DNA from: Candidatus Woesearchaeota archaeon | Lineage (GTDB): Archaea; Nanobdellota; Nanobdellia; SCGC-AAA011-G17; PNOQ01 | Length of the DNA: 64,000 nucleotides | Assembly (NCBI GenBank): GCA_964344655.1 | Contig: CAYFOF010000002.1 | Location: 56,768 to 120,767, forward strand | Direction: 5' to 3' | Shown: in pieces, positions 3,513-64,000 of the stretch | Numbering within the stretch: the stretch's first letter is position 1 | Layout: each line of letters opens with the position of its first letter | The notes under the pieces: generated by a model | Database searches by the model: none | Seen by the model: only the letters and a program-made list of their open reading frames with translations | What the model was told of the DNA's origin: nothing | Made by a program: the position numbers and the translations under genes

Positions 3513-4013
3513 ATGAAAAATTTCTTAATCACAATCTTAATAATTCTCTCAATTTTAAATCTAACTTTCTTAATAGAAATTTCAAAAAACGAAGATTTAA
3601 GCAATTTTTACTATAAAGGAGAAGAACTTCCCGAAGAATACACAAACAAAGAAAAAATCCACATGCAAGAAGTTAAAGACTTAGTAAATGCATCATTAAT
3701 ATTTAATTTATTATTATTCTCAACATTTCTAATAAAACAAAAAACAAATACAAAACAAATAGGAAAATATCTAATCTTAACCTCATTATTTTTATTCGTA
3801 GCAGCAATATTCTTCCAAAAATTCTTTCACAATTTCCATTTAATATTTTTCAACGGAGATAATTGGCTTCTTCCAGCATCTTCAAAATTAATACAAACAT
3901 ATCCATTAAGCTACTTTAGAAATATATTCTTAATAATTAACACAATTTATCTAATAATTGGAATTACTCTATACAAAAAACTATACATTTTCTTCCAAAG
4001 AGCTATCAGATAA
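3513..4013 (+). CDS. integral membrane protein
   Basis: 166-aa ORF with several hydrophobic helices. No family recognised. Confidence 0.35.
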   Translation: MKNFLITILIILSILNLTFLIEISKNEDLSNFYYKGEELPEEYTNKEKIHMQEVKDLVNASLIFNLLLFSTFLIKQKTNTKQIGKYLILTSLFLFVAAIFFQKFFHNFHLIFFNGDNWLLPASSKLIQTYPLSYFRNIFLIINTIYLIIGITLYKKLYIFFQRAIR

Positions 4014-5869: not shown

Positions 5870-6349
5870 CTATCCTTCACAAGATCCACATTCACATTCT
5901 GTACCACACGTTTCACACATGCCATTCACACATTGAGGGTCTCCACAGTCAACAACTTCATCAGTAACTTCTCCACCTTCACCAGTTAAAATACAGAAAG
6001 GATTATCTCCTTCTTCTCCAGGAGGACCATTACAATTATCATAAACTATAACATTATACAAAGCCTGTCCACTGAAAAATAACGAAACAAAAAACAAGAT
6101 AACAAAAGCCCAAGAAACTACTTCAAAATATTTATGCACTCCTCTCGCTAACTTAGTAGATTTTCCCATTAATTTTCCAACGATTTTACTTTTTACCTTT
6201 ACATCTAAACCAGATTGACATTTTCTTAAAGTAACTCTTCTAAAAACACAATCAAAAGCTTCTTTAGCTAATGGTCGATAACTTGCCGAAAATATTGCAA
6301 GTACACCAAAAACTATCAAGCTTAATAGGCATATCATAAAACAAAACAA
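5870..6349 (-). CDS. membrane protein with Cys-rich C-terminal domain
   Basis: Two hydrophobic helices followed by CGDPQCVNGMCETCGTECECGSCEG. Confidence 0.35.
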   Translation of the reverse strand: MFCFMICLLSLIVFGVLAIFSASYRPLAKEAFDCVFRRVTLRKCQSGLDVKVKSKIVGKLMGKSTKLARGVHKYFEVVSWAFVILFFVSLFFSGQALYNVIVYDNCNGPPGEEGDNPFCILTGEGGEVTDEVVDCGDPQCVNGMCETCGTECECGSCEG

Positions 6350-7819: not shown

Positions 7820-8569
7820 ATGATAGATCCTGTAGCTATAAATCTGGGAACAATCCAAATACGTTGGTATGGAATAATAATGGCTTTTGGATTTCTATTA
7901 GCATATTTCATTTCTCAAAAACTAGCCAAGTATAGAAATATTTCAAAACAAGATATGTCTGATTATTTCATTTACTTCATAATCTCTTCAATAGTTGGAG
8001 CAAGACTTTGGGCAGTAATATTAAACTATCAAAATTACACAAACATATTAGAAATATTTGCCGTTTGGAATGGCGGAATGGCAATCCACGGGGGAATTGC
8101 TGGAGCAGCTCTTGCAACATATTATTTCTCAAAAAAAAGAAATATTCATTTTTATGACATTGCAGATATAATGGTTATCCCAACAGCATTAGGTTTAGCT
8201 TTAGGGAGAATTGGAAATTTCATAAATCAAGAATTTTACGGCAAACCAACTTCATTACCGTGGGGAGTATACTTCGATAACATTGAAGGAAAAAGACATC
8301 CCTCACAAATTTATGAATCTCTAAAAAATTTATTAATTTTTGGAATAACCTTAAAACTATTCTTATTTAAGAAATTAAAAAGAGGAACAATATTTTGGAC
8401 ATTTATTTTATTATATTCATTACTAAGATTTTCTGTAGAATTTTTCAAAGACATGCCAACATTCCTAAACTTAACTTATGGACAAATAATCTCAATACCG
8501 TTAATTATAATTTCAATAATAATGTTAAAAAGAATAGCAAATCCTACGCAACATTTAAATAACAATTAA
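7820..8569 (+). CDS. lgt: prolipoprotein diacylglyceryl transferase (Lgt)
   Basis: Lgt signature GLALGRIGNFINQEFYGKPTSLPWGVYFD and RHPSQIYE, matching E. coli Lgt GRIGNFINGELWGR and HPSQLYE. The protein has multiple TM helices and is 249 aa. Confidence 0.8.
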   Translation: MIDPVAINLGTIQIRWYGIIMAFGFLLAYFISQKLAKYRNISKQDMSDYFIYFIISSIVGARLWAVILNYQNYTNILEIFAVWNGGMAIHGGIAGAALATYYFSKKRNIHFYDIADIMVIPTALGLALGRIGNFINQEFYGKPTSLPWGVYFDNIEGKRHPSQIYESLKNLLIFGITLKLFLFKKLKRGTIFWTFILLYSLLRFSVEFFKDMPTFLNLTYGQIISIPLIIISIIMLKRIANPTQHLNNN

Positions 8570-19356: not shown

Positions 19357-19929
19357 CTAAATAAAACCACTAGCTAATAATAAAGCGATAGCTCCAAATA
19401 ACACAGAGAAATAAACTCTTTTATCCCATCTTAAAATTTTCTTTCCATCCAAATTCCAGAATGGAATCATGTTAAACGCAGCCAACCAAGCATTAATCAA
19501 CAACCCATATTGAGTAAATATATTAACAAATCCAATCAAAGTTAAACCTAAAAATGCCGCAGCTAAAACTAAATTGACTAATGGTCCAGCCACACTAATT
19601 TTTCCATTTTTCTCTCTATTAACATACCCATTTATCATTACAGCCCCAGGAGCTGCAAAAATAAAACCTAAAAAACTCATAGCTACAGCTAAAATTAACA
19701 TTCCATTAAAAGCTCTAAATTCAGCATAACAATGATATTTTTGAGCAACATATTTATGTCCTAATTCATGCAATAAAAATCCCAATCCGACTGTAAATCC
19801 AGAAACTAACAACATAATTCCAAATTCATTTGAAAACACATTTCCATTACTTAACAAAATAGCAAAAGCTAAAGATATAGCAACCCATGCTTTCATTAAA
19901 TGTTCAATCTCTACATCACTAAATTTCAT
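19357..19929 (-). CDS. site-2 protease family (M50) intramembrane metalloprotease
   Basis: HExxH motif LLHELGHKYV inside a TM helix. Several further TM helices follow. Confidence 0.65.
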   Translation of the reverse strand: MKFSDVEIEHLMKAWVAISLAFAILLSNGNVFSNEFGIMLLVSGFTVGLGFLLHELGHKYVAQKYHCYAEFRAFNGMLILAVAMSFLGFIFAAPGAVMINGYVNREKNGKISVAGPLVNLVLAAAFLGLTLIGFVNIFTQYGLLINAWLAAFNMIPFWNLDGKKILRWDKRVYFSVLFGAIALLLASGFI

Positions 19930-39398: not shown

Positions 39399-39983
39399 TT
39401 ATCTCTTTTTCGATCCATAATTATTTACAATATACAAAACAATAATAGCCAATAACAAAATCCAAGTAATTGAACAATAATTAAATCCTTTTACACCAAT
39501 TTCCCCAGGTTCATCTATTAATAAACACCCTTCATCATCTTGACACACATAACCTTCATCACAACCCAAATCTTCTGACCAATCTAAACAATTATCACTA
39601 TCATAATAGCCACATCTTTTATACACAACATCATCAGAACAAACTAAATCCCCCGGATTACACTCATCTTCGCAACTAATAACTCCCGGAATTACTGGAT
39701 CTACCTCACTATTATCATTTTCATCAGAACATCCAGGATCTAATGGAAAATCAATTAATCCATCTTCATCATTATCAATCCCATCATCACAATCATAAAT
39801 AATACTTCCGCCAGAAGAACCTCCAGAAGGAGTTTCGCCAGAAGATGACTCTCCAATCACAAGTGTACTTCCCACAGAAGCTTCAGAACTAGGAGAAAAA
39901 ACTAAATTCCCAGATAAACATAAAACAAAAAAAATAACAAAAAGAACAATAAAAATCCAAATTGAATTATTTTTTATATTCAT
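39399..39983 (-). CDS. secreted Cys/Asp-rich protein with C-terminal TM anchor
   Basis: Signal peptide. Calcium-binding-like CDDGIDNDEDGLIDFPLDPGC. C-terminal hydrophobic helix followed by a basic tail (GSKKR). Confidence 0.4.
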   Translation of the reverse strand: MNIKNNSIWIFIVLFVIFFVLCLSGNLVFSPSSEASVGSTLVIGESSSGETPSGGSSGGSIIYDCDDGIDNDEDGLIDFPLDPGCSDENDNSEVDPVIPGVISCEDECNPGDLVCSDDVVYKRCGYYDSDNCLDWSEDLGCDEGYVCQDDEGCLLIDEPGEIGVKGFNYCSITWILLLAIIVLYIVNNYGSKKR

Positions 39984-53022: not shown

Positions 53023-53814
53023 ATGAAGCACACAATCAAAATCACAATTATTTTAACATTATTATTTTTAGCAACCCAATTAATTGGTTTAACAATTGTA
53101 GATTCATACGGAGATAAAGAACTTCCATTAGGTATTGAAAGACCAGAAGTACAAGAAGAAGTTGGATATCTTCCATTAATTTTCGCAATTTTAATTGCAA
53201 CAGGATTAGCATTAATTTTAGTTAAATTTGGAGCTATGAAACTCTGGAAAGCATGGTTTTTTGTTGCATCATTATATTTACTAACCCTCTCACTAGGAGG
53301 ATTTTTCGAAGCAAACATAGCATTCATAATTGCAACAGGGTTTATTTTACTAAGAACATTCAGATTATCAATTATTTCCCACAACATTGTAGAATTATTT
53401 GTCTACGCTGGAATTCCAGTAATATTTGCATCAATATTAAACATATTATCTGCAAGTATTTTATTAATTTTCATATCAATTTACGACGCAATTGCAGTTT
53501 GGAAAACAAAACATATGGTAAAACTAGCTAAATTCACAACACAATCAAAAGTATTTGCTGGATTAATGATTCCTTACGATAAAGGAAGAAAAGCCGCAAT
53601 TCTTGGGGGAGGAGACATTGGATTCCCATTGTTATTCTCAAGTGTAATACTATTAAACAAATCATTCCAACACGCAATAATTACAACAATAATAACAGCA
53701 ATTGCTTTACTCATGCTATTATTATTAAGTAAAAAAAACAAATTCTATCCCGCAATGCCGTTTATCTCGGCAGGATGTTTTGTAGGTTATTTCCTATCCT
53801 TATTAATTCTTTAA
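53023..53814 (+). CDS. presenilin/signal-peptide-peptidase homolog (A22 intramembrane aspartyl protease)
   Basis: YD motif in a TM helix (SIYDAIAVW), GxGD motif (LGGGDIGFPLLF), PAL-like YPAMPF near the C-terminus. Multi-TM. Confidence 0.65.
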   Translation: MKHTIKITIILTLLFLATQLIGLTIVDSYGDKELPLGIERPEVQEEVGYLPLIFAILIATGLALILVKFGAMKLWKAWFFVASLYLLTLSLGGFFEANIAFIIATGFILLRTFRLSIISHNIVELFVYAGIPVIFASILNILSASILLIFISIYDAIAVWKTKHMVKLAKFTTQSKVFAGLMIPYDKGRKAAILGGGDIGFPLLFSSVILLNKSFQHAIITTIITAIALLMLLLLSKKNKFYPAMPFISAGCFVGYFLSLLIL

Positions 53815-56170: not shown

Positions 56171-58072
56171 CTATACTAACCTTATAGTTTCCAAATTCTT
56201 AGGGGCCACAGTCTCCATTCTATAAGCTTTATGAACAGAACTAGCTAAATCCAAAACTTTACTTACTTCACCGTGAACCACGATCATTTTCTTAGGTCTT
56301 GGAGAAGTTCTTCCAACAAAATTCATTAATTGATTTCTATCTGAATGTCCAGTAAATCCATGAATAGAATAAATATCCATTTTAACTTTTACAGGCATTT
56401 GCTTACTTCCTTCCATAAACATAATTTCTTTCTCACCTTGTTGTAACCTTCTACCTAATGAGCCTTCACCTTGATAAGAAGTTAATACTAAACTATGTTT
56501 GTCACTCTCAGCTAAATTCTTAAAATACTCAACAGAAGCTCCACCAGTCATCATACCAGAAGTAGCCATAATAATACAAGGTCCATTCTCATCTAAAACT
56601 TGTTTCATTTCTTTTTGTGAACCCACATGTTTAAAAATATCTGACAAAAACGGATTTTCATTTTTGTGGAATATCGCTTGTTTTACTTTATTATTGAAAA
56701 AATTCGGATAAGCAGTATGAATAGCAGTAACATCCCAAACCATACCTTGAACAAAAACAGGTATTTTTGGTAATTTACCTTCTCTAATTGCTCTCTCAAC
56801 AATAACCATTATTTCTTGTGACCTACCAACCCCTAAAACTGGCAATAATACTTTTCCACCCCGTTCAACAGTCGTTTTGACAATATTCAACAAATAATCT
56901 TCAGATTCTTGTCTAGTTGCAGTAACATCATCTTTTCCACCATAAGTTCCTTCAATCATTAATGTCTCTAATCTAGGAAATTTAGTTACAGCAGGAGCTA
57001 ATAAATTTGAAACTTCATAATTCATATCACCAGTATACATAAAGTTATGCAACCCTTCACCAATATGGAAATGACATAATGAACTTCCTAAAGTATGTCC
57101 AGCATTATAAAACGTTAAACGTATATCTGGAGAAATATCTGAAACCTCTTCATAATCTAAAACAACAGTATGTTTAACCATTTCTTTAACATCAGCAGAA
57201 CCATACAACGCTGCCTTATTCTCTTTTTGTCCAATTGAAATCATATCTAAACATAACAAAGCTGCAGTATCTCTAGTTGGAGCAGTACAATAAACAGGAC
57301 CACGATAACCATATTTAAACAACAATGGAATTAAACCACAATGATCTAAATGCGCATGACTCAAAACAACAGCATCTAATTCTTCAATTTTTAATTCTGA
57401 AATATCCATGTAAGGATATTGATCTTGCCCTCTAGCAGCAACATTAATCCCACAATCCATTAAAATTTTAGATTCATCAGTTTGCAATAAAAATGAAGAT
57501 CTTCCAACCTGTCTTGAGGCACCCAAAAATGAAACTCTAGCATAATTTGTTTTTCCTTCTTTTCTTTTAGAACCATAAATTCTCTCGCCAATTTTATGTA
57601 AGAATTTCTTCCTATAATCATCATTCTCATACAAAACAGTTCTGATATTCTCAATTAATCTTGATCTTATAGAAGGAATTCTCTTAACCAATGGAACCCA
57701 ATAAACTTTAGATTTAATTTCTTTCAAAGTCTCTCCAGATTTCCCAATTGCAATTCCTGGTTTTTCAGCCTCAACAATAACTTGAGATCTTTGCGGATCA
57801 AATATAATATTTAACTGCCCAGCCTCTTCTGGAATGATTTTTCTAATTTCATCTTCAGCCTTTTCAACAGGCATAGGAATAGAAGGATCTGCTCTTAATT
57901 CAACCCTTTTCTTAATAGTAGAAACTATTTCTTTAATAATTCCTTTATTATCTAAAAAGAAATCTTTATTCTTCGTATACATTACAATATTTGCGCCCTC
58001 AAACGAGATATTAGTTACATCTGCATCTTTAGGCAACATATCTTTTACTTGTTCTATTATTTTTACAGCCAT
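56171..58072 (-). CDS. aCPSF1: beta-CASP/metallo-beta-lactamase ribonuclease with N-terminal KH domains
   Basis: HAHLDHCG motif and beta-CASP region. N-terminal KH domain with GIAIGKSG. The 633-aa length is typical of aCPSF1. Confidence 0.85.
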   Translation of the reverse strand: MAVKIIEQVKDMLPKDADVTNISFEGANIVMYTKNKDFFLDNKGIIKEIVSTIKKRVELRADPSIPMPVEKAEDEIRKIIPEEAGQLNIIFDPQRSQVIVEAEKPGIAIGKSGETLKEIKSKVYWVPLVKRIPSIRSRLIENIRTVLYENDDYRKKFLHKIGERIYGSKRKEGKTNYARVSFLGASRQVGRSSFLLQTDESKILMDCGINVAARGQDQYPYMDISELKIEELDAVVLSHAHLDHCGLIPLLFKYGYRGPVYCTAPTRDTAALLCLDMISIGQKENKAALYGSADVKEMVKHTVVLDYEEVSDISPDIRLTFYNAGHTLGSSLCHFHIGEGLHNFMYTGDMNYEVSNLLAPAVTKFPRLETLMIEGTYGGKDDVTATRQESEDYLLNIVKTTVERGGKVLLPVLGVGRSQEIMVIVERAIREGKLPKIPVFVQGMVWDVTAIHTAYPNFFNNKVKQAIFHKNENPFLSDIFKHVGSQKEMKQVLDENGPCIIMATSGMMTGGASVEYFKNLAESDKHSLVLTSYQGEGSLGRRLQQGEKEIMFMEGSKQMPVKVKMDIYSIHGFTGHSDRNQLMNFVGRTSPRPKKMIVVHGEVSKVLDLASSVHKAYRMETVAPKNLETIRLV

Positions 58073-58086
58073 TATTCTCTTAAGAA

Positions 58087-58731
58087 TTACTCAATTTTTT
58101 TAACCAAATGTTGAGTCTCAACTTTGTGAGCTCCTTTTTCAGTTATAGTAAATATATCAATACCATCTCCAGTAGGCATATCTCTTTGAATTGCTGAATT
58201 AATTGCTTTTTTTGCCAATTCAATACCTTCTTTGACAGTCATATCTTTATTATACAATGTTTCTAAAACCCCATACGCAATAGGAGAACCAGAACCAGTT
58301 GAAACAAATTCACCCATTCTACTTAATGATCCATCCACGCCAATATCATACAAATGGAATCCATGAGAATCTCTTCCACCCAATAAAAATGAAACTATTC
58401 CAGGAACCATACTAGGTTTCCTTATATTTTGGTAAAAAATATTCGCCAACATATTGGCAGTTTCTTTCATTGACGGTTTTTTTGCACTTCTAATTGTCTT
58501 TAAACTAATTTCAGCTCTTGATAATTTTAATATTAATTGTGCATCAGAAACTAATCCAGCCATAGTAATCGCTGCATCATCATTTATCTTATGTACTTTA
58601 TCTGTTTTATTATTTGCAACCAAATAACCAGCACTTGCTCTCTTATCTGCTGCTAAAACAACACCATCTTTACATACAACACCTACAGTAGTAGTTCCCT
58701 TCTTAACCGATTTTTCAATATTCTCGTTCAT
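58087..58731 (-). CDS. psmB: proteasome subunit beta
   Basis: Propeptide followed by GTTTVGVV (catalytic Thr). Ntn-hydrolase pattern. Length 214 aa. Confidence 0.85.
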   Translation of the reverse strand: MNENIEKSVKKGTTTVGVVCKDGVVLAADKRASAGYLVANNKTDKVHKINDDAAITMAGLVSDAQLILKLSRAEISLKTIRSAKKPSMKETANMLANIFYQNIRKPSMVPGIVSFLLGGRDSHGFHLYDIGVDGSLSRMGEFVSTGSGSPIAYGVLETLYNKDMTVKEGIELAKKAINSAIQRDMPTGDGIDIFTITEKGAHKVETQHLVKKIE

Positions 58732-58775: not shown

Positions 58776-59846
58776 TTATTTATAAGCTTTTCTAAAAAAA
58801 GGAAATATACTAATTAGAGGAGCCATAGCAGGCAATCTTATATTTCTTTTTCCCGGTTTAACTCTCTTTTCAGAAGAAGGCATTTCCTCATCTGGCGTCG
58901 GAACATACACTAATCCAGGACCAATAACAAACTCATCAAAAACAGTTCCATCTGGATATCTTCCTTGTATTGTTAAAGAAGTTTCATCCCCAGTTATTGT
59001 AACATAATTATAAGTTGCTTCAGAATACTGTCTTGTCGCAAACGGATAATGATGATGTAAATCTAATCTATGTGGCACTCCACCAGATCCCCCAGTATTC
59101 AAATAATGAATCCCATTAATATAAAATCTCTCATAAGCATGTATATGTCCGCCAAAAACAATATCTACTTCATGATCTATAAAGTATTGATCAAAATCTC
59201 TAACCCATATAGCGGCTCCACGACTTCCAGAAGTATATCCTGGTCTGTGCAACATAACAAATTTATATGTTTTACCTGAAAATTGATTTAATGTAGCATT
59301 CAGCCAATCTTTTTGTTCTTGTAATCCTGCAACATTAGCATCAGCGGAATCAGAATCCGCATCTAACACAATAAAAATATAATCATCTTCTTCAATATAA
59401 TAATATTCCATATTTCCTAGTTTATCTGGTAAATGTGGGAAATATTGCATATAATGTTCAACACCAATAGCAGCATCATGATTTCCAATCGTAGGATAAT
59501 AAGGATAATTCTTTACTAAAACACCCGCAATTTCATGGAAAATGTTCCAATTATCTGGTCCACCCCATTGACCATGAACAACATCTCCAGTATTAATAAT
59601 CATATCTGGTTGATATTCTAAAATTCTTTCAACAATTTCGGTATGAATTGGTTTTGCAGGCTCATATCCTGCATGTGTATCACCATGCACAACAAAATGT
59701 ATTCTACCATCAACAACATAAGGAGTAGGAGTAATTCTTATTGGATCTCTAATATTTAGTTCTCCAATATCAATTCCTTCATAAGATTGAACTAAACTAA
59801 TTCCAAAAATCAATACAATTACCCCATATAATAAATGTCTATTCAT
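58776..59846 (-). CDS. secreted metallophosphoesterase (purple-acid-phosphatase-like)
   Basis: Signal peptide. Motifs GDTHAG, GDVVHG, GNHD and GHIHAYER. Confidence 0.7.
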   Translation of the reverse strand: MNRHLLYGVIVLIFGISLVQSYEGIDIGELNIRDPIRITPTPYVVDGRIHFVVHGDTHAGYEPAKPIHTEIVERILEYQPDMIINTGDVVHGQWGGPDNWNIFHEIAGVLVKNYPYYPTIGNHDAAIGVEHYMQYFPHLPDKLGNMEYYYIEEDDYIFIVLDADSDSADANVAGLQEQKDWLNATLNQFSGKTYKFVMLHRPGYTSGSRGAAIWVRDFDQYFIDHEVDIVFGGHIHAYERFYINGIHYLNTGGSGGVPHRLDLHHHYPFATRQYSEATYNYVTITGDETSLTIQGRYPDGTVFDEFVIGPGLVYVPTPDEEMPSSEKRVKPGKRNIRLPAMAPLISIFPFFRKAYK

Positions 59847-59860
59847 AATATTATTGAATT

Positions 59861-59987
59861 TAATCTATTTATAAAACTTACTTCTTTCTGTAAATTCTTC
59901 CATGAACATAAAAAGAAATCCCAACAACAAGTATTGTCAATCCAAAAACAACCCAAACTCCACCCATTGCATAACTAGGAGATAACA
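59861..59987. repeat. 127-bp exact direct repeat, copy 1 (3' end of a Cys-rich gene, the intergenic region and a TATA box)
   Basis: Identical by eye to 62199-62325. It encodes ...ILLSPSYAMGGVWVVFGLTILVVGISFYVHGRIYRKK* and contains TTTATAAA. Confidence 0.8.
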
Positions 59988-60876
59988 ATATTTTTTCAAC
60001 CCCTTGGTATTCATTTATTTGGGCAGCAGATTTTTGCACTCCATTCTCTTCGCTTTCATCAATTACAAACTGTTCAACCCCAATTATAGATGTACTTTCC
60101 TGAACAATATCATTTACATCATTGTCAGAAGAATCTCCAGAAGTTCCACTATAATCTGGAACACAACAAATTAACCCATGTCCATAACTAGTTTCACACT
60201 TTCTGTCATATCCAATATCACCATAATGAGAATATCCACTCAAACAACTATCAGTACAAACCCCGTTTACACTTGCACAATTATCTTGTACAGTAGCTCC
60301 ACTGGGACTATCATCTGCATAATTTTCACACCCACTAGTGTCATAAGCACAATTACTATTACAACTTATACTTCCAGTATCATGACCAAAATCACTACAA
60401 CTTTTACTAATTGCAGAACCATCACATTCTTCTCCAGAATCTACTACACCATTCCCACATAATTCTTCAACACATTCGTTACTCTCACAAGTACTTCCCG
60501 CATCACAACCACAATCATCACAACAATTGCTTGAATCTTCATCTCCTTCACACAAACCATCTCCACAAGTTGCACTCTCACAAGCACCCAAACCCGTAGC
60601 TCCACCCTCTTCATTACAATGTGGAGTATCACCAGGACAGCCACAAATAGTACACGCAGAAACTAAAGTACAAACACCAGCATCTTCTTCGCAATAAATT
60701 GGTTCATTCCCATCAACACAAGAGTTTGCTGGAGTACCATCTCCACACTCAGTACACCCATCGCCACCATCTATTGCACCACCAGCCTTACCAGTAAATA
60801 CATTTCCAAAATTAGTAAACATCAATACACTAACTAAAAACAAAGATACTAAAATAAACACATCTCTTTCTTTCAT
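59878..60876 (-). CDS. Cys-rich secreted protein with C-terminal TM anchor (paralog 1)
   Basis: Signal peptide. Many Cys in CGDG...EECD-type repeats. CASVNGVCTDSC...YDRKCETSYGHGLICCVP. C-terminal PSYAMGG-TM-RKK. Confidence 0.55.
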   Translation of the reverse strand: MKERDVFILVSLFLVSVLMFTNFGNVFTGKAGGAIDGGDGCTECGDGTPANSCVDGNEPIYCEEDAGVCTLVSACTICGCPGDTPHCNEEGGATGLGACESATCGDGLCEGDEDSSNCCDDCGCDAGSTCESNECVEELCGNGVVDSGEECDGSAISKSCSDFGHDTGSISCNSNCAYDTSGCENYADDSPSGATVQDNCASVNGVCTDSCLSGYSHYGDIGYDRKCETSYGHGLICCVPDYSGTSGDSSDNDVNDIVQESTSIIGVEQFVIDESEENGVQKSAAQINEYQGVEKILLSPSYAMGGVWVVFGLTILVVGISFYVHGRIYRKK

Positions 60877-60889
60877 AAAGATAAAATGA

Positions 60890-60902
60890 GCTTTTTATTT
60901 AT
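60890..60902 (-). promoter_or_regulatory. TATA box (minus strand) upstream of paralog 1
   Basis: The reverse complement of gctttttatttataaagtt gives ctTTATAAAt about 20 nt upstream of the start at 60876. Confidence 0.4.
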
Positions 60903-60907
60903 AAAGT

Positions 60908-62194
60908 TTACTTTCTATTTTTAAAGTCTCTAACAACATAAGTAAACATAAACACTAAACATCCAAAAATAACACCCACAAAAACTAAAAATTCTTCTAA
61001 ACTATATTCTTCAACTTCTGTTCTAGGTGAAAATGATGGGATTTCAAAATAAACTTCTTTTGAACCTTCTATTTCATTTTTCATTAATCCATTAATTGAG
61101 GGATCAACATACTCTTCAACATTAATATTAAATGTACTTAATCTTATGTCAGATGCAGTAACAATAATATCGATAACTCCATCCCCGTCTAAATCAATCT
61201 CCCTAGGAATTCCATCATACAATCTAACATTTATCGGATCAGAATAAATAATTACATCCACATACCCTCTTGAACCAGAAACACTATCTATTTCTATTCT
61301 ATGTTCTTCCATTTGATTACTATCTGAATTTTGAGTTATATCAAAAGTTATTTCATCATTCCTTCTCAAACCATCCCAATTAAAAGAACTATAACTAGTT
61401 TGTATTTGATCATTAATCTCCACTTCATTCTCTACGATAACAGCATCATCTGCGCTATAAGACTCGCCAGACGGCCCAGAACTAATTTTAGAACACTGTC
61501 CATCACTTTGACAAGAAAATTCAGAACCACAAGGACAACTTGCACAATCATTAACCAAATTTCCATCAGCATCACAATATTGAGGAGCATTTCCTGCCAC
61601 ACAATTACTTACTCCAGTTCCATCTGAACAAGTACTTGGAGCCGGAGCAACACAACCACCAGAACCTAAAACAACTTCACAAATTAAACCTGCAGAACAT
61701 GCTGGAGCCCCAGTTATATTTTCACAATCTGCTGGACAACCATTACAAGTTTCTTCTCCAGCATCACAAGTTCCATCACCACAATATCCAGTACAAGAAG
61801 AATTATCAAATTCACAAGAAGAACAAGCTAAAGTTCCACCATAAAAACCAACATCAGTACAATCATTTCCCCCCAATAAAGCACCATCACACGATTCACC
61901 CGGATCTAACAAAGAATCTCCACAATAATTTAAAGTCCTACAACAAACTCCTGGAGCTACACAAGTTCCACCAGCAGCATACAATTCAGTCTGACCAACA
62001 CAATTATTATCTATACAAGTTTCCCAAGCAGCATCTTCACACGTGGCTCCTCCGCCACCCGCCATTCCTGTATATCCATCATATTTTTCTGAAATTGATA
62101 AAAATACAAAACTACTAACAACAATAAAACCAATCAAATAAAATACAAAATATCTACTCATAAAGAAATTATCCCTCTTCATGTGATAAATCAT
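60908..62194 (-). CDS. Cys-rich secreted protein with C-terminal TM anchor (paralog 2, longer)
   Basis: N-terminal TM/signal. The block YCGDGTCDAGEETCNGCPADCENITGAPACSAGLICEVVLGSGGCVAP is nearly identical in pattern to paralog 3. C-terminal TM followed by RDFKNRK. Confidence 0.55.
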   Translation of the reverse strand: MIYHMKRDNFFMSRYFVFYLIGFIVVSSFVFLSISEKYDGYTGMAGGGGATCEDAAWETCIDNNCVGQTELYAAGGTCVAPGVCCRTLNYCGDSLLDPGESCDGALLGGNDCTDVGFYGGTLACSSCEFDNSSCTGYCGDGTCDAGEETCNGCPADCENITGAPACSAGLICEVVLGSGGCVAPAPSTCSDGTGVSNCVAGNAPQYCDADGNLVNDCASCPCGSEFSCQSDGQCSKISSGPSGESYSADDAVIVENEVEINDQIQTSYSSFNWDGLRRNDEITFDITQNSDSNQMEEHRIEIDSVSGSRGYVDVIIYSDPINVRLYDGIPREIDLDGDGVIDIIVTASDIRLSTFNINVEEYVDPSINGLMKNEIEGSKEVYFEIPSFSPRTEVEEYSLEEFLVFVGVIFGCLVFMFTYVVRDFKNRK

Positions 62195-62198
62195 AGCA

Positions 62199-62325
62199 TA
62201 ATCTATTTATAAAACTTACTTCTTTCTGTAAATTCTTCCATGAACATAAAAAGAAATCCCAACAACAAGTATTGTCAATCCAAAAACAACCCAAACTCCA
62301 CCCATTGCATAACTAGGAGATAATA
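62199..62325. repeat. 127-bp exact direct repeat, copy 2
   Basis: See 59861-59987. Confidence 0.8.
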
Positions 62326-63373
62326 AAATTCCTTGAAAACCTTTTTGCACATCTGGATTTATTGGAGAAGTTTGTATATTTTCTTCATCAATAACATAAT
62401 CTTCAACACTTCTTACACTTCCACTAATTCCTTCACTCTCTTCATTAGTTGATGAGCTTTCTTCACCAGGAACACTATAGCTTGGAACACAACAAATTAA
62501 TCCAGTTCCATAACTCATTTCACACTTCCTATCAAAATTTATATCCCCATAATGAACAAAACCATTAGCACATTCATCAGAACATACTCCATTAACATCT
62601 ACACAAGTTACCGGATTAGATACAATGATAGAATCTTCATCATCGTTTGTTGTTTCTTCCTCAACTGCATTACTACATCCACTAGTATCAAAAGATAAAC
62701 AATCTGAATTACAACTTAAACTTCCTGATAAAAAACCTTGAGTTACGCATGTTTTTGAATTTAAATCACTCCCATCACAGACTTCTGTTCCATCAATTAC
62801 ATTATTTCCACAAGCAGAGGGAGCTTCAACAACTGAACAAGTTCCAGAGCCCAAAATCACTTCACATATTTGATTAGAAGCACAAGCCGGAGCACCAGTC
62901 ACACCCTCACAATCACTAGGACATGAAGAACAAGTTTCATCAGCATCACAAGTTCCATCACCACAAGAAGAACCTTCTACCGAAGCTAATTGGCAATTAC
63001 TATCACAATAGCTACAAGACAATCCGGGACTAGGAGTACAAACTTCTCCATTATTTTCTCCACTATCGCATTCTTCGCCCGCATCTACATTTCCATCCCC
63101 ACAATAAGAAATCTCTTCACAACAAATATCTGGAGCTATACAAGTTCCCGAAGCAGGCTGTTGATTTGCTTGACTACAAGTAGGATCACAAAAAGCAGGA
63201 GCATCACAACTAGTTCCTGCCATCCCAGTAATTAATCTAAAATCATACACTAAATATCCAACAACATTACTTAAATCATAATTAATTTCATCTAAAGAAA
63301 ATGAAGAAACATATGGACTAATAAACAAAATAGAGGCAAAAACAACCAAAACCAAAAATATCTGTCCTTTCAC
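62216..63373 (-). CDS. Cys-rich secreted protein with C-terminal TM anchor (paralog 3)
   Basis: Signal peptide. YCGDGNVDAGEECD, CGDGTCDADETCSSCPSDCEGVTGAPACASNQICEVILGSG and CVDVNGVCSDECANGFVHYGDINFDRKCEMSYGTGLICCVP. The C-terminus is identical to paralog 1. Confidence 0.55.
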   Translation of the reverse strand: MKGQIFLVLVVFASILFISPYVSSFSLDEINYDLSNVVGYLVYDFRLITGMAGTSCDAPAFCDPTCSQANQQPASGTCIAPDICCEEISYCGDGNVDAGEECDSGENNGEVCTPSPGLSCSYCDSNCQLASVEGSSCGDGTCDADETCSSCPSDCEGVTGAPACASNQICEVILGSGTCSVVEAPSACGNNVIDGTEVCDGSDLNSKTCVTQGFLSGSLSCNSDCLSFDTSGCSNAVEEETTNDDEDSIIVSNPVTCVDVNGVCSDECANGFVHYGDINFDRKCEMSYGTGLICCVPSYSVPGEESSSTNEESEGISGSVRSVEDYVIDEENIQTSPINPDVQKGFQGILLSPSYAMGGVWVVFGLTILVVGISFYVHGRIYRKK

Positions 63374-63422
63374 TTAATATCACCTACTAACTAAAATATG
63401 TATTTTATTTTTATAAATGTTT

Positions 63423-64000
63423 TCATCTACCAGATGAAGGAATCATAAACACATTCGGATAAGAAATTCCTCTTTTATCATTACATGCCCCATTACTACA
63501 ACCATAAGGGCAAGAATAATCAGCATAAACAATATCATTCTCGCTACAAGAATATTGTCTTAAGGAAGTCCTTCCAATACATTCATCTTCTTCACTTCCA
63601 AAAATCCCATTATAATTAGAAACAAATCCTTTTATTTTTAAGTTATCAAATTCATCACTATCTACACACCCCATAGATTGATAATTAACCTCAACATAAT
63701 TGGCAGAATCTGTAACTCCATCAAATCTATCAACCGCTCTAACCTTAAATAAATAATCTCCCCAATCTAAAACTTCACTATTTGTAACATCATACGCTTC
63801 AATAAATTCATCAAAAAATCCATCTACCGCAGAACCATTATCCCAATCTCCATCATTAATATTAAATTCTACATTGAAAATTTTATTTATTGAAACATCA
63901 GAATAGTATGGATTAGGAGAAACATAAACATCAGACATTGCATCTCCTAAAATTGAAAAAGACTTTCCACTTTTACCAGCATAAGTATTAGTTACAACAG
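63423..64000 (-). CDS. hypothetical Cys-containing secreted-type protein (partial, extends beyond window)
   Basis: The ORF track starts it at Met 63938, but the frame stays open upstream to the window edge (…FSILGDAMSDV…). C-terminal CPYGCSNGAC. Confidence 0.3.
   Translation of the reverse strand, partial: VVTNTYAGKSGKSFSILGDAMSDVYVSPNPYYSDVSINKIFNVEFNINDGDWDNGSAVDGFFDEFIEAYDVTNSEVLDWGDYLFKVRAVDRFDGVTDSANYVEVNYQSMGCVDSDEFDNLKIKGFVSNYNGIFGSEEDECIGRTSLRQYSCSENDIVYADYSCPYGCSNGACNDKRGISYPNVFMIPSSGR

Follow-up and report, generated by a model that had tools for sequence, protein, structure and literature searches.

The window analysed here is a stretch of 64,000 nucleotides from a Candidatus Woesearchaeota archaeon (assembly GCA_964344655.1, contig CAYFOF010000002.1, positions 56,768 to 120,767 of the forward strand). 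Within its last 4 kb it contains three consecutive minus-strand genes, named par1, par2 and par3, which encode cysteine-rich proteins with a hydrophobic N-terminus and a C-terminal hydrophobic helix followed by basic residues. We consider it likely that these proteins belong to a lineage-specific family of type I surface membrane proteins of a small group of Woesearchaeota, which has a family-specific C-terminal anchor and evolves in concert by gene conversion. In the converted tract, the paralogs par1 and par3 are closer to each other than to their orthologs, synonymous sites included, whereas the flanking sequence sorts by orthology, and further cases were found in the related loci L005 and L018 (loci of other assemblies carry L numbers, homologous proteins P numbers). 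The tandem trio of C-terminally anchored, Cys-rich signal-peptide proteins had been described in an initial annotation made from the sequence alone, and the open reading frames (ORFs), with 29-32 Cys each, agree with that description.

Homogenised DNA at the ends of par1 and par3

The proteins encoded by par1 and par3 end in the same 37-aa peptide (ILLSPSYAMGGVWVVFGLTILVVGISFYVHGRIYRKK), as the initial annotation had recognised, and the transmembrane (TM) tail of par2 is different. The annotation was also right that the two genes share an identical DNA segment, but not about its length, which it gave as 127 bp: the maximal exact repeat covers 125 bp (59861-59985 and 62199-62323), and position 59986 differs. 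BLAST stretches the repeat to 132 bp with two mismatches. Only two copies are present in the window, and the identity drops to 25-50% on either side. Comparable segments are 74-84% identical, and at such an identity a run of 125 matches has a probability of approximately 1e-10 to 1e-17 by our own arithmetic, which excludes chance as the cause of the identity.

We compared the 111-nt tail and the six-cysteine (six-Cys) module encoded just upstream of it across four genomes. Inside a single genome, the tails of par1 and par3 are 98% identical in the window (over the 111 nt; 100% over the 125-bp tract), 95% identical in L005 and 85% identical in L002. Between genomes, the identity of the tail DNA is 84% for the window and L002, and 68-70% for the window and either L005 or L006. 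The same was evident from the third codon positions of the tail, with an identity of 0.95 inside the window and 0.89 inside L005, as compared to 0.43-0.51 between the window and L005 or L006, and to only 43-46% for the more distant genome. The six-Cys module sorts by orthology, showing 78-80% identity between par1 and par1 and 67-74% between par1 and par3 of the same genome. Since the module follows orthology and the tails follow the genome, the par1/par3 duplication is, judging from these comparisons, older than the compared species, and the tails have been homogenised since.

Two other loci show homogenised tracts of the same kind. In L005, the tract extends past the stop codon and the TATA box as far as the start codon of the following gene. 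The tract of L018 is common to two par3-type paralogs; it measures approximately 210 nt, is 90-100% identical and includes the intergenic region. The stop codon and the TATA box lie within the tract in the window, in L005 and in L018. The view that the tail DNA has been homogenised by gene conversion within genomes, independently in at least two lineages, is thus well supported, and the recent conversion that the initial annotation had read from the exact repeats is in agreement with the within-genome and between-genome identities, third positions included. Locus L002 speaks against this view, because its paralog tails (85%) are no closer than the orthologous ones (84%), which makes it a weak or old case. 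Given the weak signal in L002, we consider the conversion to be episodic and not continuous.

Concerted evolution is known from contingency and surface gene families of bacteria and eukaryotes, where segments are more identical within a genome than between orthologs of different genomes, synonymous sites included, and where the tracts have sharp boundaries at the edges of similarity. At the present locus, the conserved anchor together with the neighbouring putative promoter has been converted, and not the variable part that is exposed; thus, the effect is homogenisation of the anchor and not antigenic diversification. The 5' edge of the tract is probably set by the hypervariable acidic linker, which is without DNA similarity, and the 3' edge by the start of the following gene, which is unrelated between the two copies. 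The tail and the string of stop codon and TATA box would then be the only stretch alike enough to seed recombination. We propose that homologous recombination repeatedly copies the tail between paralogs because it is the only long stretch that is alike at the DNA level, and that the stop codon and the abutting TATA box are copied along with it. With no differences in 125 bp, the latest copying in the window genome would be very recent. The locus presents a clean and well-bounded case of concerted evolution in an uncultivated archaeon.

All three intergenic regions of the array have the same layout, with a stop codon, two bases and then TTTATAAAT. More generally, TTTATAWW occurs at positions -36 to -24 from the start codon in 13 of the 62 ORFs of the window, as compared to 0.6 expected, with a peak at -29/-30. 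A TATA box at such spacing is the layout expected before leaderless archaeal mRNAs. We infer that the TTTATAAA box in the par1 copy of the tract (tract A) may be the promoter of a leaderless mRNA for the downstream metallophosphatase gene. That the repeated segment spans the stop codon, the intergenic region and a box serving the next gene had been proposed before, and both the positions and the enrichment of TTTATAWW are consistent with it, the promoter function being a prediction.

Two explanations of the 125-bp identity other than gene conversion were considered. The source is a metagenome-assembled contig, and the only base that differs from a second assembly falls inside the tract, which could point to an assembly artefact in the form of a collapsed or duplicated segment or a chimeric join. 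However, this second assembly, ENA ERZ930065 (L001), comes from the same organism, differs from the window at one position in 5883 bp and has the three genes in full order with both tracts. In addition, a related species shows the three-gene order in five more assemblies (NCBI, ENA and JGI), and both tracts are in frame, ending two different genes that are supported by homologs. Since L001 carries both tracts and the gene order recurs in a related species, we conclude that the repeat is real; an assembly duplication, a possibility raised in the initial annotation, is extremely improbable. The single mismatch is located at position 62220 in the par3 tract, with an A (RKK) in the window and a G (RKR) in L001, and is compatible with conversion or mutation after the populations split. 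The chance that one random single-nucleotide polymorphism over 5883 bp falls in the par3 tract is approximately 4%.

Strong purifying selection without recombination, whether its target is the peptide or a DNA or RNA element overlapping it, is hardly credible either. The tail peptide is highly conserved across genomes, and a stop codon followed by TTTATAAA is present in all intergenic regions of the array, as such selection would have it. However, selection on the peptide is unable to fix synonymous sites, and the third positions agree at 43-51% when the window is compared with L005 or L006, but at 95% within the 111-nt tail of the window and completely across the 125 bp. Moreover, orthologous tails differ at 16-32% of their bases, and a search of the region (59500-64000) detected no Rfam family at E<=1. 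Based on the third-position comparison, we regard purifying selection as already refuted, and retain gene conversion as the explanation of the identical tracts.

The C-terminal tail as anchor or sorting signal

The tail shared by par1 and par3 consists of the motif SPSYAMGG, a TM helix and a basic end (RKK). The motif starts 34 residues from the C-terminus in both proteins. Its P, Y, A, M, G and G are invariant across 12 tails, and distant members degrade to SYGMGG, KAIGG or GHVMGG. The best 17-residue Kyte-Doolittle window in the tail averages 2.33, and the basic residues at its RKK end are mostly Lys and not Arg. In the AlphaFold2 (AF2) model of par3, residues 353-384 form one continuous helix with a predicted local distance difference test (pLDDT) score of approximately 85. 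At the other end, all members display a charged N-terminus followed by a hydrophobic stretch of 15-20 residues, as judged without a dedicated signal-peptide predictor. No part of the protein is conserved as well as the tail, which has a mean column identity of 69% as compared to 32% for the whole protein. In the helix region, W, F and L are invariant, and T, S, Y and H are near-invariant, the H being located inside or after the helix.

A profile of 41 tail positions scores the family members at 72-92 bits. A word-index search with the 41-residue alignment yielded 29 candidates without scores and was uninformative, and an exhaustive profile search against 1.84 billion representative proteins was used instead. 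This search recovered 17 clusters, consisting of 3 already-known members and 14 newly fetched ones. One architecture, with a signal peptide, an ITGxA segment, Cys-rich repeats, a six-Cys module, an acidic linker and the tail, is shared by 15 of the 17 clusters (12 of the 14 newly fetched). The remaining two are P0056, a probable chimeric fragment, and P0069, a spurious repeat. The 86 residues of P0056 comprise an LpxA-type-looking N-terminus joined to the linker and tail of the family, and this protein most likely stems from a chimeric short contig and is not a new tail carrier. Pattern scans located the tail family in three of 185,579 species genomes, all with titles naming Candidatus Woesearchaeota, and in eight metagenome loci. 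The 64-kb window contains two tail carriers, both members of this family, and several related genome regions have one.

None of the four proteins (the array and its upstream neighbour) matched a family of NCBIfam release 20 at E<=10, and hence none matched a CTERM model, NCBIfam being the collection that we take to hold the curated CTERM models. No exosortase or archaeosortase was found among the multi-pass proteins of the window (Lgt, a Lit-like protein, an M50 protease, a presenilin/signal peptide peptidase (SPP)-type protease and one protein without a Pfam match), and no multi-pass membrane protein or protease adjoins the array in the syntenic loci whose flanks were examined. Related proteins end in other ways: par2 has a plain TM anchor, the syntenic Cys-rich homologs of the sister lineages L019, L020 and L021 end in a plain TM helix followed by KKK, without the motif, and the homologs P0032, P0043 and P0047 have MYXO-CTERM-like tails (GC...TM...RRR).

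The initial annotation had suggested that the tail might be a new sorting signal of the exosortase/archaeosortase type, or simply a membrane anchor. With the LPXTG/sortase, PEP-CTERM/exosortase, PGF-CTERM/archaeosortase A, GlyGly-CTERM/rhombosortase and MYXO-CTERM/myxosortase systems it has in common a short motif, a TM helix and a basic cluster at the extreme C-terminus of proteins with a signal peptide (PMC6098224; 10.1101/2023.06.07.544157), and the motif ends in Gly-Gly as in GlyGly-CTERM. It differs from them in being carried by one protein family rather than by unrelated proteins, with one or two copies per genome region, and in its Lys-rich basic cluster, its conserved helix, the lack of a model match and the lack of a cognate multi-pass enzyme nearby. 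Archaeosortases have been described for a subset of Euryarchaeota (PMC6098224), and not for DPANN. Eight attributes of tripartite C-terminal sorting signals have been listed by Haft (10.1101/2023.06.07.544157). The seventh, which separates a signal from a family feature, is lacking, as no unrelated protein pairs share the tail (17 clusters among 1.84e9 representatives), and for this reason we regard the tail as a family feature and not as a general signal.

Apart from P0056 and P0069, the motif was thus found in these proteins only, and there is no sortase-like gene in the window or the examined flanks. We conclude that SPSYAMGG-TM-RKK appears to be a conserved, family-specific elaboration of an ordinary stop-transfer anchor; of the two suggestions, the membrane anchor is the better reading of the data and the sorting signal was not supported. 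Because the helix is unusually conserved, the anchor probably does more than anchor. In the topology that we propose, a Sec-type signal peptide would take the disulfide-rich ectodomain (DUF4215-like repeats and one or two six-Cys modules) outside the cell, whereas SPSYAMGG, the 20-residue helix and the following H-x-R-x-x-RKK would stop the transfer and remain as a membrane anchor with the basic tail in the cytoplasm. The conserved residues of the helix may mediate a contact within the membrane, either with itself or with a partner.

Some observations count against this conclusion. The tail has six of Haft's eight attributes, namely C-terminal position (attribute 1), the motif (3), the TM helix and basic cluster (4-5), the signal peptide (6) and homologs with other tails (8), so that processing is conceivable from the sequence. 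Substrates of the GlyGly-CTERM/rhombosortase system likewise have an invariant Gly-Gly at the outer end of the TM helix. Furthermore, the sequence covered was the 64-kb window and, for the relatives, no more than 10 kb to each side of the array, so that a distant processing enzyme could exist.

In line with these observations, SPSYAMGG-TM-RKK could be a dedicated processing signal with few clients, cleaved at or near the motif by an intramembrane protease or by the adjacent HExxH metalloprotease, acting as a membrane-tethered sheddase, after which the ectodomain is released or re-anchored. We regard this as quite unlikely. The proposal draws on the tripartite layout with six nearly invariant starting residues at the extreme C-terminus of signal-peptide proteins, on the homologs elsewhere that lack the motif or carry MYXO-CTERM-like tails, on a gene for an HExxH lipoprotein-like protein that directly precedes the array in the same orientation wherever upstream sequence was available, and on the M50 and presenilin/SPP-type intramembrane proteases encoded in the window. 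However, all real tail carriers are of one ectodomain architecture, the genome regions seen contain just one or two carriers each, no multi-pass membrane protein adjoins the array in the examined lineages, and no CTERM hidden Markov model matched. The HExxH family is also far broader than the motif, with at least 134 matches, including bacterial proteins and a second copy on the same contig, and the gene is found paired with Cys-rich proteins that lack the motif. Finally, known sorting signals have a poorly conserved hydrophobic core, whereas the helix of the tail is the most conserved part of the protein. We therefore prefer the family-specific membrane anchor, and the case illustrates that a C-terminus of tripartite layout is in itself not enough for a sorting signal.

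Cysteine-rich ectodomains and the six-Cys module

In par3, the signal peptide is followed, towards the C-terminus, by the conserved segment FSxxE..GY..F..ITGMAG, an N-terminal six-Cys module, the module CGDGTCDAxETCxxCPxDC, two repeats resembling DUF4215 (residues 88-135 and 188-235), the membrane-proximal six-Cys module, an acidic linker and the SPSYAMGG-TM-RKK tail. Repeats of the type CG[DN]G..(E/D)xCD are present in par1, par2 and par3, as stated in the initial annotation, but the CxxVNGxC...CCVP module, which had been ascribed to all three, was found in par1 and par3 only and not in par2. The gene par3 is the founder-type gene of the array and the sole array gene found in every lineage; its orthologs in other Woesearchaeota and in metagenome contigs are 29-69% identical. 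The C-terminal 260 aa of par1 are homologous to par3 with 49% identity, and its N-terminal Cys-rich region is distinct. Orthologs of par1 are P0011-13 and P0057, in addition to those in L002 and L005.

The N-terminal half of par2 is homologous to par3 (40% over approximately 200 aa), and the C-terminal half, which is free of Cys, forms a domain that contains a DLDGDGVID loop and ends in a separate TM anchor unlike that of par1 and par3 (...FLVFVGVIFGCLVFMFTYVVRDFKNRK). The start of par2 was placed at 62182 based on homology with the L002 ortholog. The Cys-free domain (residues approximately 235-428; 60908-61480, minus strand) matches EF-hand_5 at only E=0.1 through its DLDGDGVIDI loop, and it has been kept in the par2-type genes, which were seen in L002, L010 (two copies), L014, L015 and L018. 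The resemblance of the N-terminal half of par3 to par2 and of its C-terminal half to par1 supports module shuffling.

Scans of the three proteins and the neighbour against Pfam (E<=1) and NCBIfam (E<=10) gave nothing usable, and in the literature on DUF4215, on Cys-rich surface proteins of Woesearchaeota and on archaeosortase in DPANN we found no description of the par1/par2/par3 family. However, a unit of approximately 46 residues, CG[DN]Gxxxxx(E)xCDGxxLxxxxCxxxGFxxGxLxCxxxCxxFDTSGC, aligns at 34-41% with the repeats of PF13948 (DUF4215) proteins. Matches to PF13948-annotated proteins were obtained by phmmer at E=3e-38 to 1.5e-4, with Myxococcota among the named matches, and by BLASTP against P0018 at 36% identity over 164 aa (E=3e-17), repeated in register. 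The PF13948 model itself had no match at E<=1 for par1 or par3, and none for par2.

The Cys-rich repeat proteins of Myxococcus with PF13948/DUF4215, many of which have MYXO-CTERM-like tails, are likewise secreted and repeat-built and share the alignable unit. The window proteins differ from them in scoring below the Pfam and NCBIfam models, in having only two or three units, in combining these with other Cys modules and in their tail. A working analogy, in layout only, is TraA of Myxococcus xanthus, a polymorphic surface receptor with a paralog, which combines a signal peptide and a variable recognition region with a stalk of Cys-rich repeats and a tripartite tail (PMC3325183). TraA differs in its PA14 domain, its TIGR04201 repeats and a MYXO-CTERM tail that is common to 34 proteins in that genome, and no homology between TraA and the array proteins was detected.

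The spacing of the six-Cys module is invariant in 22 homologs. The disulfide-rich structure prediction suggested in the initial annotation was carried out with AF2. The full-length model resembles beads on a string (mean pLDDT 64, predicted TM-score (pTM) 0.22), and a search of the PDB gave weak matches to epidermal growth factor (EGF) arrays and defensins only. When modelled alone, the six-Cys module reached a pLDDT of 92.8 and a pTM of 0.71, with helices at residues 5-8 and 26-36 and strands at 11-13, 20-22 and 41-45 (elements H5-8, E11-13, E20-22, H26-36 and E41-45). All 13 PDB matches listed by Foldseek have defensin-type folds, but with E-values of 0.9-9 and a probability of at most 0.72. 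They include oyster and horseshoe-crab big defensins, beta-defensins of crocodile, mouse, human and birds, and helianthamide, which we take to have a beta-defensin-like fold. The top match is oyster big defensin 1, with a TM-score of 0.58/0.57 and a root-mean-square deviation of 2.3 A over 44 columns. A search of PDB sequences with the module profile found no match to any chain.

The module shares with beta- and big defensins the six Cys in the order C...C...C...C...CC and the defensin-type matches of its model. The beta-defensin/trans-defensin fold consists of a short helix and a three-stranded sheet and has the disulfides C1-C5, C2-C4 and C3-C6. In the module, the order of the Cys and the terminal CC are invariant, but the loops are longer than in defensins (x15 and x9-11 as compared to x9 and x6), an 11-residue helix is inserted, and the module is part of a membrane protein and not a free peptide. 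Small disulfide-rich folds converge easily. That the module (C-x6-C-x3-C-x15/16-C-x9-11-CC) has a genuine beta-defensin/big-defensin-type fold, here in surface proteins of a DPANN archaeon, is therefore a tentative and rather doubtful suggestion of the model, and we treat the likeness to defensins as a lead, not a result. Trans-defensins have been described only from animals (PMC11561630). If true, the prediction would be of wider interest, setting a fold class of animals next to the membrane of an archaeon, where it could act on or bind the envelope of a partner cell.

A similar arrangement of six Cys is seen in the N-terminal module of par3 and par2, which might be a further copy. A distant syntenic homolog in L019 (6853-8268) carries two tandem six-Cys modules (CDYVGGICQEEC...CCYP and CTYYGGSCLASC...CCIP) among 48 Cys in 471 aa, which argues that the module is an independent and duplicable unit. 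Another short element, [IFY]TG[MKNLD]A(G), is located 8-25 residues after the N-terminal hydrophobic stretch in all proteins of the Cys-rich superfamily, with a near-invariant T and an invariant G. It is also present in tail-less relatives of 625-642 aa (P0055-type, L005 250-2178 and L006 1054-2931), and was not seen in other proteins of the loci scanned. It may be a processing or recognition site.

Array composition, neighbouring genes and other features of the window

Coordinates of the array and its elements in the window (residue numbers refer to the proteins)
Feature	Position	Strand	Description
par3	62216-63373	minus	ORF, 385 aa; GTG start preceded by GGTGAT; 32 Cys
par2	60908-62194	minus	ORF open over 428 aa; probable start 62182 (MKRD..., ~424 aa); 29 Cys
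par1	59878-60876	minus	ORF, 332 aa; 30 Cys
Conversion tract, copy A	59861-59985	minus	End of par1: last 35 complete codons and two bases of the 36th, stop codon 59878-59880, 17 intergenic bases with TATA box
Conversion tract, copy B	62199-62323	minus	Equivalent segment at the end of par3; exact 125-bp match to copy A
TTTATAAA box in tract A	59868-59875	minus	29 nt upstream of the ATG of the metallophosphatase gene (58776-59846)
TTTATAAA box in tract B	62206-62213	minus	31 nt upstream of the inferred par2 start (62182)
TTTATAAA box directly after the par2 stop	60898-60905	minus	29 nt upstream of the par1 ATG; outside the exact repeat, same stop-then-TATA layout
Membrane-proximal six-Cys module of par3	62483-62605	minus	Residues 257-297; C-x6-C-x3-C-x15-C-x9-CC
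Six-Cys module of par1	60157-60279	minus	Residues 200-240; same module as in par3
[IFY]TG[MKNLD]A(G) sites	~63218-63238 (par3)		par3 residues 46-52; par1 residues 26-32; par2 residues 41-47
HExxH neighbour, C-terminal part	63423-64000, runs off the window	minus	Upstream of par3; orthologs L002 8142-9944, L010 7614-9554, L019 5001-6809

The array varies in size from one to three genes and is always located directly downstream of the HExxH gene. It consists of par3 only in L006, L007, L012, L013 and L017, of par3 and par1 in L005, of par3, par2 and par1 in the window, L002-4 and L011, of par3 and par2 in L014 and L015, of par3 and two par2-type genes in L010, and of two par3-type genes and par2 in L018. 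Members of the family differ chiefly in their distal, N-terminal modules. Copy-number variation and shuffling at the locus, both anticipated in the initial annotation, were thus observed as arrays of one to three genes and as proteins with mixed halves. We propose that tandem duplication, loss and the shuffling of modules make the array expand and contract. The two adjacent par2-type paralogs of L010 (10901-12190 and 12195-13421) have long near-identical stretches, e.g. CGDG(T/V)CDNATETCS... and EGEPQR(V/I)DLDGDGVEDIV..., which suggests recent duplication or conversion there too.

Taken as a whole, the array is uncharacterised but conventional: a tandem, shuffling set of predicted disulfide-rich type I surface proteins in a narrow group of Woesearchaeota. 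Woesearchaeota and other DPANN are thought to be attached to or dependent on other cells, and their surface proteins are almost entirely unannotated. The locus provides a defined, syntenic and rapidly changing surface array, in which the membrane-proximal half is constant and the distal half is shuffled. Such a pattern is expected of proteins that meet a changing outside world, which makes the array a reasonable first candidate for studies of partner contact.

The HExxH neighbour is a protein of 570-646 aa with an HExxHxxGxxD motif and, in its orthologs, a lipobox-like LSGC N-terminus; the full-length copy is P0072, on the same 178.9-kb NCBI contig on which par3 and par1 are recorded. In Pfam it has only sub-threshold matches to reprolysin/M7. 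The gene lies immediately upstream of the par3-type gene in every lineage with upstream sequence, and because the pairing persists where the motif of the tail is absent, it is not tied to that motif. The bacterial proteins among the matches of the HExxH family include some with type IX secretion system (T9SS) or dockerin domains. A role as a dedicated processing enzyme is unlikely for a protein of such a broad family, which occurs in bacteria and in a second copy and pairs with Cys-rich proteins lacking the motif. As judged from gene order, lineages of Woesearchaeota have conserved this pair of a metalloprotease-like surface lipoprotein and a Cys-rich membrane protein.

Downstream of the array, the window contains the metallophosphatase gene (58776-59846), the gene for the proteasome beta subunit (58087-58731) and that for FttA/aCPSF1 (56171-58072). 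Wherever this side was read, except in L005 and L020, the proteasome beta gene follows the array directly or after the metallophosphatase gene. The window is archaeal in gene content, and the named homologs of par3 are from Candidatus Woesearchaeota.

Among the Cys codons of the three genes, 87 of 91 are TGT, and Asp is nearly always encoded by GAT. The codon-aligned antisense frame is rich in Thr and Ile and the +1 antisense frame in His. The antisense Thr/Ile-rich and His-rich ORFs are explained by this use of TGT and GAT, in agreement with the initial annotation, where they were called artefacts of Cys-codon bias.

The only intramembrane proteases seen near the array are the presenilin/SPP-type protease (53023-53814, plus strand) and the M50 (site-2) protease (19357-19929, minus strand). 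In L002-L004, L006 and L007, the SPP gene is likewise found a few kb downstream of the array, which is probably general synteny. Nothing links the SPP, M50 and Lit-like proteins of the window to the array beyond general synteny, and they were set aside as candidates for processing.

The window also encodes a full-length, bacterial-type prolipoprotein diacylglyceryl transferase, Lgt (7820-8569, plus strand; Pfam LGT E=2e-74, 250 bits) and a Lit-like lipoprotein transacylase (3513-4013, plus strand; E=1e-13). Both genes are thus found in an archaeal window in which the HExxH neighbour of the array has a lipobox-like LSGC. According to a paper from 2025, homologs of Lgt had not been identified in archaea (PMC12462473). 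Two further small Cys-rich ORFs are located on the minus strand, both without a Pfam match: one at 39399-39983 (194 aa, 12 Cys) with a signal-peptide-like N-terminus and a C-terminal TM helix followed by KKR, and one at 5870-6349 (159 aa, 13 Cys).

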